DNA of 64,000 bases, from NCBI GenBank assembly GCA_963788655.1, contig CAWBHS010000060.1, forward strand, positions 320,001 to 384,000, given 5' to 3'. The DNA is from an uncultured Verrucomicrobiae bacterium (GTDB taxonomy: Bacteria; Verrucomicrobiota; Verrucomicrobiia; Limisphaerales; JAFGQR01). Positions within the stretch are counted from its first letter, which is position 1, and the number at the start of each line of letters is the position of its first letter. Shown here in pieces: positions 24,301 to 44,296 of the stretch. The position numbers and the translations under genes were made by a program. Under the pieces are notes generated by a model. That model was not told where the DNA came from and made no database searches. It was given only the letters and a program-made list of their open reading frames with translations.

Positions 24301-24872
24301 CCGCAGGGGCTTTGCCAATTCTGTTACAAAACCGATAAGTGAGCGGGCTGTCCCGCACAAACGGTGAGAAGGAATCTAGCGCGCCTCAGGCCGGCGCGAT
24401 AGAAGGTCGGCCACCCGCGCCTGCCGCACAGCCCTCGCGCTCCCTCCTGCCGCTGCGGGTGCGGCATCCGGGCCACACCCTGCGCCCCCTTGCCCCCGCA
24501 GCGTGTGTCCCGGCTGCCGCTCCGCTACGTCGGTCGGCCAGGGCTGCTAGCGGCCCGCCGCCCCGAAAGACACCCCCGGCGGGCGCTCCGTGTCACGCTG
24601 GCTGCTAAAGGCAAAGGCAGCCTTCGCGCCACTCCGCGCAGGTGGCTGCACCAACGGCGGGCCAACCGGAATAGTGGCGCTCGCCGACTCGCGCCAGAGC
24701 TTCGCCAGTTCGGGCGTCGCGGTTGCAATCGTGGCGTCCTGGGTGTTCTGCGCGTTCCGGCCCTGCGTTCGCGAGTGAGCGCTCGCAACAGAATCGAATG
24801 CGCTGTCGATAAAGTGACAGGTTCAAAGTTGTTGACATGTTTTGCACCCTGATGCCAACCTCCCGCCACTCT

Positions 24873-25841
24873 ATGAGAATGGCACGGATCAAGATTCAAG
24901 GGCGCAGTGCGGTGTATCACTGCATGTCGCGGATTGTCGGGGGACAGGCTTTGTTGGATGACGTGGGGAAGGAGAAGTTGGTGGCCATCCTCGGGCAATT
25001 GGCTGCGTTTTGCGGCCTTGAAGTCATCACCTACTGCATGATGTCCAATCACTTTCATGTTCTCGTTCGCGTTCCGGAACAACAGAATCCCTCCGACCAG
25101 CAACTGATCGAGCGCATGGAAGCCTTGTACAGCAAGAAAAGCGCCCTGGTGCAATTAGCCCGCAACACTTTGGTGCAGCACGGCCGGATCGATCACGATA
25201 TTCGGCAATCCATGGTGGAGCGAATGGGGGATGTTTCCGCGTTCATGAAGGAACTCAAGCAGCGGTTCAGCCGTTGGTACAACCGACAATCGGGGCGCTT
25301 TGGCACGCTCTGGGCCGAGCGGTTCAAGAGTGTATTGGTGGAGGATCAACCGGGAGCGGTTGAAACCCTCGCCGCGTACATTGATCTGAATCCAGTGCGC
25401 GCCGGTTTGGTGGACGATCCCAAAGAGTATCGTTTCTGTGGCTACGCTGCGGCGTTGGCCGGCAACAAAGCGGCCCGAGCGGGATTGCTAAGCTTCCAAA
25501 AGAGCATCGACTGGAAGACCGGCGCTGCTGAATATCGAAAACGCTTGTTCGTGGGAGCGGGAGTCGCCGGAAGAAGCGATAAATTGGTTCTGGATCGCGA
25601 GCAGATCAAACGCGTGTTGTCTCAAGGCGGTGAGCTGAGCCAGGCACAAATCCTGCGTTTGCGCCTCCGACATTTAACCGATGGAATTGTGCTGGGTTCG
25701 AAGGCCTTCGTGAACGAAATCTTTGCGTTGCACCGCGACAAATTCGGCGCCAAGCGACAATCGGGAGCCCGGCCGATTCGCGGCGTGCCGTTGCGGGAGC
25801 TGAGCGTTTTGCGGGATTTGCGCGTCTCCGCCGTTAGCTAA
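24873..25841 (+). mobile_element. REP-associated tyrosine transposase (RAYT, IS200-like Y1 HUH family)
   Basis: VYHCMSRI, YCMMSNHFHVLV (HUH), MKELKQRFSRWYN...GTLWAERFKSVLV, YIDLNPVRAGLVDDPKEYRFCGY. Confidence 0.92.
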
Positions 25842-25889
25842 GAGTTTACTGGGACCTTCCGTTTGAATCTTCGTTGCCTTTTTGAACCA

Positions 25890-27867
25890 GTAGAGTAGAG
25901 AGGAAAGCACGGAATGAAAGGCCCGAAAACCAATGACCGCCGCTTCCCTCTCCCTCGTCGAACCGGACATGGAGATTTCCCCCATCCGGCTCTCGCCAGT
26001 GTCGGCTCTTCCACAAAGCATTCACAACGCAACCAGTCCCAGATGGTCCAAGTGAGCATACAGGCTGACGCCCTCACGGGCTCGCCAACCCCGTTGGCTG
26101 CGACGTTGCAGATGCCGTCCCAACCGATACCGCACGAAGTGATTGAGCTGACGAAATGCCTTCCGCGGATAGCCCAACTTGAAGTAGTTGGACCAACCCC
26201 GCAGGTGACGGTTCACCCGTCCAATCAACTCCGGCATGGGCGTATGACTCTGATGCGGGTTGATCAACCCTCGCAACGCTTTCCGTTCCCGATCCATCGT
26301 TTTGCGCGACGGTTCCAGGTTCCAGTAACGCTGCGGCCGACCGTATTGATCGCGGTCATACCGAAAGGTGTAGCCCAGGAAATCCAGGCTCTGGCCCGAT
26401 TGCTTCAAATCCACGATCCGAGTTTTATCCCGGTTGATTTGCAGGTCCAGCCAGCCTTCCAGTTTGCCCTCGATCCATTCCCGCAACTTCGGACTGATGT
26501 AGCGAGCCATGACCACGAAGTCGTCCGCGTAACGGATCAGCTTCGCTTTGGCCCATTGCGCCGGTCCATCTCCTCGTTGGAAGAGGTGGTCGAACCAGTG
26601 CAAATAGACATTGGCCAGCAAAGGCGAAAGCACTCCACCTTGGGGGGTGCCCCGGTCGTTGCGTCGCACCGTGGGTGGTTGTCCCCCTGGGGGCGGTTCC
26701 ACCACCGGCGCCTTGAGCCATTGTCGGATCAGTCCCAGGACCGAACCGTCCACCACGCGCATCCGCACGCAAGCGATCAGCTTATCGTGGGGAATGCTGT
26801 CGAAGTAGCCAGCCAAATCCGCATCATACACCGCCGTTTGACCCTCCTTCAGGTGCTGTTGGATGGCGCGCAAGGCATCGTGCGCCGATCGTCCGGGCCG
26901 AAACCCGTGGGAGCAGTCTTCAAAGTCGGCTTCGAAGATCGGCTCCAGGATCAGCAACACCGCCGCTTGCACCACCCGGTCCCGCACCGTCGGAATGCCC
27001 AACGGCCGCAACTTGCCGTTGGCCTTCGAGATATACACCCGCCGCACCGCTTGGGCACGATAGGTTTTGTCCCTCAGGCTCCGTTCGATCTCGGACAGAA
27101 ATGCCGCTTCGCTTTCCGGCGTCGTGGTGATCTGTTCGATGCTCACTCCGTCCACGCCCGGCGCACCGTCGTTGCGCCGCACCGCGGCCCAAGCCGCTTG
27201 CAGCACGTCGGTTCGATACACCAAAGCGTAGAGACTGTAGAAGCGAAACCGCTTCTGTTGTTTGGCTTTCTGGCCCAGCTTCTGTCTCAGTTCCCGCAGG
27301 CTCGGCGGCAGGATCGCTTCCCGGAAGGAAAGTTCCTCCACCGCTTCTTCTGTTGTAGGAATGAACTCCATCCCAATCAGCTCCGGATTCCTCTGACTCG
27401 GCTTGACTCTGGCCAGGGCTCCTTGGCTCCCTGCCAACTTGATCGGCAGATCGACGCTACTATGAGCCCATCCGACGCCGCGATTCGGCCCCACCAGCGG
27501 TTATGGCTTCCCGCCAGGGGTTGTCCTGCGTTACAGGCCAGGACTCCGAACCGGGCCTCCCAAGTTCCCAGTGGTTCTTTCTGCGCGCGCTGTCTCCTCT
27601 CACCCCGGGGAGTCCGGTCGGTGCATGGGATCGAATCTTCCCGACCGATGCGGGCTTCACCACATCCGGCAGGCTGGCCACTCCCAGTTTTGTGTAACGA
27701 GGCCGAACCGAGTTCGCGGAACGCTACGGCTCGCGCATTGGCCTTCCCCAGCTTCAACGGGCAGGATCGCTCCCACCCGCTTAAGGGTCGGCTACATGAC
27801 TCTCGACCATTTATCATGGTTAACACGTTGCAGTTAACAAGAACCACCAAGCTTGCTTGGCGCTTTC
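25890..27867 (-). mobile_element. Group II intron, full length (~1978 nt)
   Basis: Domain V GAGCCGGATGGGGGAAATCTCCATGTCCGGTTC (~25960-25993); domain VI ending CTCTACTCTAC at 25890; ~500 nt structured 5' region; removing 25890-27867 restores a REP-like motif. Confidence 0.92.
26022..27371 (-). CDS. ltrA: Group II intron reverse transcriptase/maturase (RT + domain X, no endonuclease)
   Basis: [69 protein letters not shown]. Confidence 0.97.
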
Positions 27868-27956
27868 CGAATTGACACTAATTAATGGGATTTCCCAACC
27901 GGTGTCAAAACGCTACTCGGTACCTTGAATTCGTGGTAATTCGTGTAATTAGTGTC
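27868..27956. repeat. REP-like inverted repeat (ACACTAATT/ACACGAATT family) flanking the intron
   Basis: GACACTAATT (27874-27883) pairs with AATTAGTGTC (27947-27956); AATTCGTGGTAATTCGTGT lies between them. Confidence 0.75.
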
Positions 27957-28016: not shown

Positions 28017-29384
28017 ATGCAAGCCGTCCTTGATTACCTGAAACAAAACGAGGCCCGATTCGTCCAGGAACTTTGCGAGTATGTGCGGTTTCCCAGCGTG
28101 TCCGCGCAACCGCAGCATCAGAAAGACATGGCCGCCTGCGCCCGCTGGCTGGTACAGCACTGCACTCGGATAGGATTGAAAGCCCGCCTGCAGCCGACTG
28201 CGGGACATCCCATCGTGATTGCCAAAACGCCCCGCGCCCGTTCGGCATCGCGTCCGCATTTCCTCGTTTATGGGCATTACGACGTGCAACCGCCGGAGCC
28301 GTTTGAGTTGTGGAAGACTCCGCCATTCGAACCGACCGTGGTGGGCCGCTCGCTTTTCGGCCGTGGCGCCAGCGACAACAAAGGCCAGCACCTGGCCCAC
28401 TTGAACGCCGTCGAAGCGCATCTGCAAACTGGCACTGAGCTGCCCTGCGATCTGACGTTTGTCATCGAGGGCGAAGAAGAAGTCGGCAGCAGTCACCTGG
28501 CGGATTTCTTGCGCCACAATCGAAAGGAGCTGAGTTGCGAAGCCGTGATCATCTCCGACAACGGCATTCCCAGCCGGAAATATCCGGCGTTGACCTACGG
28601 GCTGCGTGGGATCGCTGCCCTGGAAATCGAACTGCGCGGTCCGTCGCGTGATCTGCACTCCGGTATTTTCGGCGGCACGGTGGACAATCCGGCGATGGCG
28701 TTGTGTCAATTGCTGGCCCAGTTGCGCGACCAGAACGGGCGCATAGCCGTCCCCGGCTTTTATGACGACGTCAATCCGCTGGTGGCTTACGAGCGCAAAC
28801 AGTTCGCCCGCCTGCCCCATAACGATGCGGCCTACCGCAAGTTCCTCGGCGTGCCGAAGTTGTTCGGCGAACGTGGCTACACCGCCATCGAGCAACGTTC
28901 GGCCCGACCCACCATTGAGATCAATGGTTTGACGAGCGGCTACCAGGGCGAGGGCAGCAAGACCATCGTGCCCGCGTGGGCCCGGGCCAAACTGACGTTC
29001 CGCCTTGTCCCGAACCAGAAGCCGGACAAAATCCTCCGGTTGGTGCGCCAGCACTTGAAGCGGATTTGTCCCCCAACGGTGCGGATGTCGCTGCAATCAG
29101 GCCACGGCGGCGATCCGTATTTGGTGTCACCGACCAGTCCACATTCGCAGGCGGCGCTGCGGGCGTTGAAGTTTGCTTTCGGCTGCGAGCCAGTGCTGAT
29201 GCGCGAAGGCGGTTCCATTCCCATCGTCAACGATTTCAAGCGCATCCTGGGCGCCGACACCTTGTTGCTCGGAATGGCCTTGCCCGATGACAATGCCCAC
29301 TCGCCCAATGAAAAATTCGACCTCGATTGCTTCGCGTGTGGGATGCGGTTGGGGGCATGTTTGTGGGAGGAAATGGGGCGGTGA
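28017..29384 (+). CDS. M20-family dipeptidase (ArgE/DapE-like)
   Basis: LVYGHYDVQP, GRGASDNKGQ, IEGEEEVGS, DLHSG, GGSIP, NAHSPNEKF. Confidence 0.95.
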   Translation: MQAVLDYLKQNEARFVQELCEYVRFPSVSAQPQHQKDMAACARWLVQHCTRIGLKARLQPTAGHPIVIAKTPRARSASRPHFLVYGHYDVQPPEPFELWKTPPFEPTVVGRSLFGRGASDNKGQHLAHLNAVEAHLQTGTELPCDLTFVIEGEEEVGSSHLADFLRHNRKELSCEAVIISDNGIPSRKYPALTYGLRGIAALEIELRGPSRDLHSGIFGGTVDNPAMALCQLLAQLRDQNGRIAVPGFYDDVNPLVAYERKQFARLPHNDAAYRKFLGVPKLFGERGYTAIEQRSARPTIEINGLTSGYQGEGSKTIVPAWARAKLTFRLVPNQKPDKILRLVRQHLKRICPPTVRMSLQSGHGGDPYLVSPTSPHSQAALRALKFAFGCEPVLMREGGSIPIVNDFKRILGADTLLLGMALPDDNAHSPNEKFDLDCFACGMRLGACLWEEMGR

Positions 29385-43900: not shown

Positions 43901-44296
43901 GGACGCCAGATTGTTCGCCGCACTGGCAAACGCCACGAATTGGCCATTGGCCGAAATCGAAGGGTAGCCCGCGTCCCCATTGCCGCCGCCGATGCCGTTG
44001 GTATTGACGCTGACCAGGATAGTTTGTCCCGATTCCAGGTTGCGCACAAACACATCCAGGTAGGGCGCCAAGTCATCGTTGGTCACCAGGTTGGGCGCGT
44101 GGCTGAGAAACACGAGGAATCGGCCATCGGCGCTGAACTGCGGCATGAGCGAATTCCCGGACGCAGTTCGGCTCGAGGCCAGGATGCCGTTGGGAGCGAT
44201 GACCTGGGGGGAATTCTGGGCCGCGCTGCACAAGCAGGTCGGACAACAGGCCAACGGGACTACTCCGAAAGCAAGGCATAGGAAAATCGTCCTCAT
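40998..44296 (-). CDS. Secreted TolB/PD40-like beta-propeller protein with DxDGDG repeats and C-terminal RYYRV domain; apparent frameshift at ~43500
   Basis: Signal peptide MRTIFLCLAFGVV; many SADGR.VAF.S.A.NLV..DTN...DVFVRDL repeats; DTDGDGLDDDWE...GTDPTN; W.AVPGRAYRVQY...W...RYYRV. Confidence 0.85.

Follow-up and report, generated by a model that had tools for sequence, protein, structure and literature searches.

The window analysed here is a stretch of 64,000 nucleotides (nt) from an uncultured Verrucomicrobiae bacterium (assembly GCA_963788655.1, contig CAWBHS010000060.1, positions 320,001 to 384,000). Its minus strand carries a group II intron of 1,978 nt, 27867..25890 (-), that extends from a G at 27867 to a C at 25890 and begins with the heptamer GAAAGCG instead of the consensus GUGYG. 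Across the element the minus strand reads ...uuagugucaauucg/GAAAGCGCCAAGC...CCUCUCUACUCUAC/ugguucaaaaagg, slashes marking junctions here and below. The introns sharing this start are referred to as the GAAAGCG clade. Among the boundary motifs of group II introns GUGYG is the most conserved, and it corresponds to the GU at the spliceosomal 5' splice site; it contacts the branch, the 3' end and domain I. To our knowledge, natural departures from its length have been described only in immobile introns without branching. Despite the missing GUGYG the element is classified as a group II intron, because all structural and catalytic domains are present and exceptions to the consensus are documented.

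Structure of the intron

The annotation is based on profile searches, folding, the pairing of exon-binding sites (EBS) in the intron with intron-binding sites (IBS) in the exon, and an alignment (A1) of 14 clade members and 6 relatives. All features lie on the minus strand:

25890..27867 (-), whole group II intron, 5' GAAAGCG...CUCUAC 3', placed by homology to 25 other copies and by empty-site paralogues of related copies
27875..27878 (-), IBS2 GUGU, exon positions -11 to -8, four contiguous pairs with ACAC of EBS2
27868..27872 (-), IBS1 AUUCG, forming the final 5 nt of the 5' exon, five of five pairs with EBS1, shifted registers tested
27861..27867 (-), non-canonical 5' heptamer GAAAGCG, consisting of G1, AAA for U2, and GCG corresponding to G3-C4-G5 of GUGCG (26 of 26 junctions; alignment with the sister introns)
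27856..27860 (-), 5' strand CCAAG of the domain I basal stem (RNAalifold columns 8-12 with 320-324, compensatory changes)
27804..27808 (-), alpha, GGUCG in the IB loop, complementary to alpha' (covariation read by eye in A1)
27751..27752 (-), candidate epsilon', GC of the unpaired GAAGC in the IC1 internal loop, putative partner of G5-C6 (conservation)
27691..27695 (-), EBS2, ACACA (pairing with IBS2)
27663..27668 (-), EBS1, CGGAUG, sharing its alignment columns with EBS1 in the GUGCG relatives
27629..27633 (-), alpha', CGAUC, pairing with alpha (A1)
27560..27564 (-), 3' strand CUUGG of the domain I basal stem (RNAalifold pairing)
26022..27371 (-), intron-encoded reverse transcriptase (RT)/maturase of 449 amino acids without endonuclease (En) domain, YADD at 26531..26520 (profile matches)
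25960..25992 (-), domain V (RF00029 and fold)
25893..25956 (-), domain VI with predicted bulged branch-point A at 25896 and a clade-specific distal insertion (fold and alignment)
25889..25889 (-), first base in the 3' exon, which starts UGGUUC (Y-G follows all 20 copies with a 3' junction)

The Rfam model of domains V and VI, RF00029, matched 25994..25890 (-) with 47.2 bits against a gathering score of 40. The predicted fold of the 3' terminal 107 nt (z = -3.9) consists of a domain V hairpin of 34 nt, which carries a 2-nt bulge, and of a long domain VI; none of 200 shuffles folded as well. The single bulged A of domain VI is 25896, 7 nt from the 3' end, and the intron end ...UAC fits the AY rule. 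Domain I was matched by RF02005 (group-II-D1D4-6) at 27829..27593 (-) with 59.8 bits against 49, a match seen only when the region was searched alone with laxer filters, the gathering search of the whole window having missed 27593-27829. RNAalifold predicted 105 pairs in domain I, 71 of them with compensatory changes. The domain I basal stem begins directly after the heptamer, thus the single-stranded 5' segment comprises 7 nt versus 5 in canonical introns. The open reading frame (ORF) 27371..26022 (-), assigned to domain IV, encodes 449 amino acids with RVT_1 (1.2e-32) and maturase GIIM (1.2e-13) domains and scored 381.9 bits with TIGR04416 (cut-off 300); its best relative of solved structure in a comparison with the PDB was the GsI-IIC RT (198 bits). 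Without the ORF the intron measures 628 nt, which fits the small bacterial IIB-like classes of 450-700 nt without ORF (PMC3753933; this and the other publications are cited from excerpts). The canonical 3' end (domain V, domain VI with bulged A, ...CUCUAC at 25890) and the intact RT had both been read by a preliminary description of the window, and the profiles bear out both readings. Very probably, the element is a mobile group II intron of IIB-like type, full-length and En-less, that belongs to a Verrucomicrobiota lineage; this high degree of confidence applies to the presented anatomy, boundary and lineage jointly.

Boundaries and exon recognition

The RT was used as query against genome contigs and retrieved 79 loci (L numbers), mostly in metagenome-assembled genomes (MAGs) of Verrucomicrobiota. 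In BLASTN searches with the 5' part of the element, homology began within few bases of 27868-27872, and the upstream sequences were unrelated. All 26 related 5' junctions (the window and 25 loci in 14 other assemblies) start with GAAAGCG after differing flanks that end ..AUYYG or similar, and neither GTGCG nor a shifted boundary occurs among them. One further match to the 5' motif, in L075, was left out as a chance match with one mismatch and no further homology. The 3' end CUCUAC is present in 20 of 20 full-length copies, followed by Y-G in all 20 and by Y-G-G in 18. Fourteen diverged clade members agree in all of the first 12 nt, while otherwise only 48.5 % of their columns are invariant. 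The window copy shares 70-84 % identity with the other full-length copies, so that the heptamer has persisted while the copies diverged substantially. Errors of sequencing or assembly, or a mutation private to one decaying copy, are a negligible explanation for the aberrant start: we found no point in their favour, and they are opposed by the recurrence of the heptamer in 26 of 26 copies from 15 assemblies, by this divergence of the window copy and by its intact RT.

Empty sites were sought by querying the joined exons of every full-length copy against all collected loci. The joined exons of L007 matched two uninterrupted sites in the same locus (97.5 % identity over 160 nt), which read ...gagctctctgcggttgatt..., while the occupied site reads ...gagctctctg/GAAAGCG...CUCUAC/cggttgatt.... 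Those of L067 matched L030 (98.9 % over 95 nt) and those of L021 a second L021 site (90 % over 161 nt). The joins sit exactly at g/c without terminal ambiguity; since the terminal bases of intron and exon differ, only one placement of the boundaries is possible. Comparison of three occupied sites with their uninterrupted paralogues gives GAAAGCG...CUCUAC as the exact inserted unit. The 5' boundary at 27867 given in the preliminary description agrees exactly with the flanks of the other copies and with the three uninterrupted paralogous sites, and its rejoined junction on the plus strand, TTTGAACCA/CGAATTGACACTAATT, is correct.

The position of the 5' splice site was examined independently by the pairing of EBS1. 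The first C of EBS1 pairs with the base before GAAAGCG, with at least four of five pairs at 23 of 23 distinct combinations of site and EBS1 and five of five at 17 of these. In six shifted registers five of five pairs were reached at no site, and the means were 0.35-2.48 versus 4.74 in the proposed register. EBS1 and IBS1 covary (AUCCG/CGGAU, AUCUG/CAGAU, UUUAG/CUAAA, UCUUUG/CAGAGA). The same EBS1 column pairs with the -1 base in 6 of 7 relatives with GUGCG or GAGCG starts; the seventh, L038, was not extracted. For EBS2 and IBS2, at least four contiguous pairs were present between exon positions -6 and -14 at 16 of 23 sites, and the mean pairing was attained by none of 2,000 exon shuffles. An error of one base, with the invariant G(-1) belonging to the intron (GGAAAGCG) or G1 to the exon, could be suspected from the G at -1 in 25 of 26 junctions, by which homology alone reaches one base further. 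This placement is very improbable: the empty sites ...ctctctg-cggttg... and ...catctg-cggttt... permit a single placement, the pairing falls at shift 0 in the register test, and L052 has a U at -1, which assigns the conserved G(-1) to the exon. We hold with high confidence, within the joint judgement given above, that the 5' splice site directly follows, on the 3' side, the nucleotide paired with the first EBS1 base, an arrangement shared with the canonical relatives. EBS1 and EBS2 recognize the exon in the conventional manner and in the canonical register; the change is in the intron's own 5'-terminal motif. The altered 5' splice-site recognition suggested in the preliminary description was not borne out.

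Lineage and mobility

An RT tree was calculated with 69 sequences (query-anchored tblastn alignment, FastTree LG, loci below 75 % coverage excluded). One RT clade (SH-like support 0.86) holds all 23 members of the tree whose GAAAGCG start could be determined, and with them four members whose 5' ends are off the contig or undetermined (L004, L005, L010, L028). The sister group, L016/L018/L038 (joint node 0.954), has introns starting GUGCGCCAAGCA, thus GUGCG, with the junctions cag/GUGCGCCAAGCA and ccug/GUGCGCCAAGCA. GUGCG starts were also present in remoter relatives from Thermodesulfobacteriota, Cloacimonadales and Methylococcaceae.

Copies at different sites of the same genome are 98.6-100 % identical: six copies in JAOSKK (98.6-99.8 %), three in JACKPW (99.1-99.7 %) and four in OY760937 (99.2-100 %), of which three are 100 % identical over 1,967 nt. 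This near-identity at differing sites indicates recent mobility. An open frame of at least 410 codons containing YADD was found in 17 of 20 full-length copies. Precise junctions, three matching empty sites and the occurrence of near-identical copies at different sites were together taken as the mark of retromobility. The intron is apparently complete, mobile and active. That the GAAAGCG introns form a monophyletic lineage with GUGCG introns as its sister group, and that this lineage moved recently, is the third part of the joint judgement and is asserted with equally little doubt. The preliminary description had expected the unusual start to be a lineage trait, which agrees with the tree.

Some copies are rearranged. 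In L031 (257-1382) an insertion of about 1.1 kb follows intron nucleotide 28. L010 (2001-2127) has an RT 95 % identical to that of the window and no alignable sequence for the first ~126 nt. L052 (4700-6250) contains a degenerate copy and then a second, 5'-truncated copy.

The 5'-terminal motif

The sister introns start GUGCGCCAAGC, the GAAAGCG clade starts GAAAGCGCCAAGC. In alignment A1 the clade sequence stands opposite G--UGCGCCAAGC in the relatives L016 and L018 and opposite G--AGCG in L015, and the same domain I basal stem follows in clade and sister introns. From this alignment U2 was replaced by AAA, as had been proposed in the preliminary description. In group II introns, epsilon consists of intron positions 3-4 and lambda of position 5. 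The conserved unpaired GAAGC of the IC1 internal loop is unchanged between the clade and the canonical relatives, and the RF02005 model has AAGC at its place; by position, its GC at 27752-27751 is taken by us as epsilon'. The contact of G1 is with the penultimate nucleotide of the intron (PMC4238363, PMC3669008).

An alternative derivation is a 5'-terminal extension: a GA was added upstream and the old G1-U2 became A-A, leaving AAGCG as a degenerate GUGCG with a splice site shifted 2 nt upstream relative to the core. By sequence, G+AAA+GCG and GA+AAGCG are inseparable, because the alignment gives only two extra nucleotides before GCG, and introns with the splice site 1-33 nt or 8 nt upstream of GUGYG have been described (PMC4424553, PMC4024640). 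The known cases, however, have lost EBS2, the branch A and the RT and splice by hydrolysis according to the excerpt of PMC4024640, while the GAAAGCG clade keeps all three; moreover, +1 is a G in 26 of 26 copies, and EBS1 keeps the alignment columns that it has in the relatives and, like theirs, pairs with -1. We consider the extension unlikely, and the motif is treated in the following as a replacement of U2 by AAA.

A distal domain VI insertion of ~30 nt, absent from the GUGCG sisters, is also present in the clade; in L019 and L037 a different, longer insert occupies this place. A pairing of GAAAG with CUUUC in the domain VI internal loop was considered and rejected on two grounds: L001, L003, L012 and L014 have CUCUC at this place and L019 and L037 the other insert, and the loop is located about 13 base pairs (bp) from the branch A.

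Other introns of this RT family have deviant starts as well. In L015:107, from a Verrucomicrobiaceae MAG (JAAYAT010000245), the intron starts GAGCGCCAGGCG after ..gauccg, a change of U2 to A. L015 (GAGCG) is sister to L017 (GUGCG; support 1.0), which makes this an independent change of position 2 in the same family. Seven introns from Lentisphaeria MAGs (L032, L033, L035, L036, L039, L040, L041; same RT family, 51-54 % identity) start GUUAAG, GUUACG or GUUAUG, then CCGGC, about 575 nt upstream of the RT match and after exons ending ..uuYg. In L032 and L035/36 an EBS1-like CAAGA or CAAAAC at intron nucleotide 236 covaries with UCUUG or GUUUUG in the exon. The loop equivalent to GAAGC is GAAAC in the Lentisphaeria introns, and no empty sites for them were found among the collected loci.

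Proposed splicing and mobility

The following scheme would account for the observations. An ancestral GUGCG terminus would have been converted to GAAAGCG by replacement of U2 with AAA, lengthening the 5' single strand from 5 to 7 nt. Splicing would proceed by branching, with an attack of the A25896 2'-OH on the phosphate 5' of G1 (G27867). G1 would retain its canonical roles in the branch linkage and in the contact with the penultimate A, and G5-C6-G7 would assume the epsilon and lambda roles of G3-C4-G5. A2-A4 would form an extra, sequence-constrained linker from G1 to epsilon, either looped out and stacked or engaged in a new contact. The lariat ribonucleoprotein would reverse-splice fully into sites of the type IBS2(YRYGY)-N(1-2)-IBS1(AUYYG)/YGG within short tandem repeats of 9-10 nt, and complementary DNA synthesis would be primed without an endonuclease; introns lacking En require an alternative primer (PMC4424553).

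Hydrolytic splicing, or release of linear or circular introns, combined with spread by another route, would tolerate an odd 5' end without branching. Such behavior has a precedent in group IIE introns, which have a normal-looking domain VI and show only hydrolysis in vitro (PMC3753933), and the folded domain VI basal helix of the window intron has only 3 bp, a feature linked to poor branching in vitro (PMC4748821). Against hydrolysis speak the conservation of the bulged A, together with its flanks, in all 21 aligned 3' ends of the clade, and the precision of both junctions in every copy, which together with the three empty sites is the signature of full reverse splicing; for the latter a lariat is needed (PMC4024640). 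Hydrolysis with another route of spread is thus improbable. Chances for the branching mechanism itself are seen as about even. The complete proposal, a retromobile lineage that forms lariats and fully reverse-splices into DNA despite a 5' end 2 nt longer than GUGYG and without U2, is offered tentatively, at slightly less than an even chance.

Several points weigh against the overall interpretation of the element. Splicing, lariat formation and the branch point are derived from DNA. All relatives of the intron are from MAGs, and the boundary of the window copy itself follows from homology and EBS1/EBS2 pairing, the empty sites being from related copies. The intron occupies an intergenic gap antisense to both neighbouring genes, and a promoter scan upstream of it revealed no sigma-70-like promoter, a scan that is uninformative for this phylum. 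The longest RT frames of L030, L067 and L069 are frameshifted and have 231, 102 and 245 codons, which may reflect decay or assembly error. L001 and L050 have a C.A mismatch at IBS1 position -3. The exon shuffles used for the EBS2-IBS2 pairing ignore the relatedness of the copies. The clade is set apart from the outgroup by only 13 of 465 columns, none of which offers a U-rich partner for AAA. A longer epsilon-epsilon' pairing, in which A4 would pair with the U that follows the epsilon' GC, was considered: this base is U in 20 of 24 matched clade copies (L031 and L052 excluded; L002, mis-registered by the pattern, reads U in A1) and C in 7 of 7 relatives. The pair fails in L012, L030 and L067, which have a C like the outgroup; the additional A4-U pair is therefore possible and not required, and was kept as a weak candidate. 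Since all clade members descend from one event, co-changes specific to the clade are beyond statistical testing.

Comparison with known group II introns

The closest canonical introns (L016, L018/L038, L017, L027, L053/54, from Verrucomicrobiota and other MAGs) have RTs with 60-65 % identity and share with the clade the domain I architecture, the CCAAG/CUUGG basal stem, the EBS1 and EBS2 columns, the GAAGC loop, the 3' end CUCUACUCUAC and the target type ..YG/YGG. They differ in the GUGCG start, the lack of the ~30-nt domain VI insertion and the C after the epsilon' GC (7 of 7).

The GUGYG consensus is described as holding for 'the vast majority' and not as a strict requirement (PMC4424553). 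Exceptions listed there are C.te.I1, with a splice site 8 nt upstream of GUGYG, and fungal rRNA introns, in which the site is 1-33 nt upstream. Such introns with shifted sites have lost EBS2, the branch motif and the RT and splice hydrolytically, and IBS1 directly beside GUGYG is possibly required by mobile introns for reverse splicing (excerpt of PMC4024640). C.te.I1 of Clostridium tetani resembles the clade in having extra nucleotides between IBS1 and the GCG/epsilon part and in a splice site set by the IBS1-EBS1 pairing. It retains an intact GUGCG 8 nt downstream of the splice site, and in the excerpted description it has no ORF, no mobility, a disrupted branch site, splicing by hydrolysis and no supported EBS2 (PMC4024640). 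In the GAAAGCG clade, by contrast, GUGYG is gone and RT, branch A, EBS2 and mobility are kept. Downstream of the clade splice site no intact GUGYG is present, GAAAGCG running straight into the domain I basal stem. Fungal mitochondrial rRNA introns share with the clade a recurrent gain of 1-33 nt at the 5' end; they are organellar IIB1 introns, not retromobile, that have lost EBS2, the branch-point motif and the RT ORF and are excised in linear form, as stated in the excerpts of PMC4424553, PMC4024640 and PMC4748821.

Deviant terminal nucleotides are also known from bacterial IIB-type introns with an intron-encoded protein (IEP). The class D intron RmInt1 has a 3' end CC instead of AY and an IEP without En domain (PMC4238363), and UHB.I2 is reported as 5' UUGCG...GU 3' (PMC7923331). 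Individual intron classes also have boundary consensus sequences of their own. Unlike in the clade, these are substitutions inside the 5-nt or 2-nt motif, the length of the 5' motif being unchanged. Group IIC introns resemble the clade in the En-less RT (the GsI-IIC RT was the top structure match), in intergenic targets and in a 3-bp domain VI basal helix. They have an IBS1 pairing of 4 bp, no EBS2 in the excerpted account (PMC4024640) and insert after terminator hairpins (PMC4028801), whereas the clade has an EBS2-IBS2 pairing, an IBS1 of 5 bp and targets made of tandem 9-mers, not of a hairpin plus U-run. The GAAAGCG clade differs from the known shifted-site and boundary-deviant introns: its motif is 2 nt longer, U2 is gone, and RT, EBS2, branch A and mobility are retained. 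In the literature, no report linking GAAAGCG to group II introns was found, a prior cataloguing in the Zimmerly intron database being possible; nor was there a report on Verrucomicrobia group II introns, apart from a BLAST match mentioned in passing in PMC7923331.

The clade may serve as a natural experiment on the slack in the active site between the scissile phosphate and the epsilon pairing; it bears on the dispensability of U2 and on the tolerance of reverse splicing for a longer 5' end. If lariat-based retromobility is true, adjacency of IBS1 and GUGYG is not required for retromobility, and the invariant AAA would make a new sequence-specific contact with the catalytic core or the IEP. 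Together with the GAGCG start of L015 and the GUUANG starts in Lentisphaeria, this would then be an RT family whose 5'-terminal motif is evolving. Annotation pipelines that set boundaries with a GUGYG profile would miscall or drop GAAAGCG introns.

Target sites and genomic setting

The targets of the clade consist of short tandem units of 9-10 nt (CCAUCCGCG, AUCUGCGUC, CUUUGNGSY), and the homing sites are the last units of such repeats, for example CCAUCCGCG three times, AUCUGCGUY twice and CUUUGNGSY three times. Repeats of this kind were located in the 5' flanks of L020/L021/L026, at L007:4330-4360 and in the window at 27868-27884 (-). The non-coding region L007:4150-4900 is a tandem repeat of ~445 bp with two unoccupied homing-site copies beside the occupied one. 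The target in the window is AAUUAGUGUC, then AAUUCG/UGG. A related group of repeats lies on the opposite strand:

27928..27956 (+), three direct units of 9-10 nt (AATTCGTG, AATTCGTG, AATTAGTG), opposite strand to the intron

The window intron's own target, two AATTCGTG-type units, is inverted relative to this group. The preliminary description had placed the 5' end by this inverted repeat. The sequence AATTCGTGG(T) does stand at 27928 (+); the 9-mer is not enriched within the window (21 matches with at most one mismatch versus 19.6 expected), and the inverted-repeat argument is therefore weak on its own. The sole other exact match of the 9-mer, at 43933 (-), lies in apparently ordinary sequence and not in a repeat cluster, as judged by eye.

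The plus-strand gene 24837-25841 (+) stops 48 nt from the 3' terminus of the intron. Its ORF of 334 amino acids resembles Y1/REP-type transposases, with an N-terminal Y1_Tnp (IS200-like) domain; the match to the REP-associated tyrosine transposase had 59.4 bits, below the cut-off of 80. The other neighbour is an M20 peptidase gene at 28017-29384 (+).

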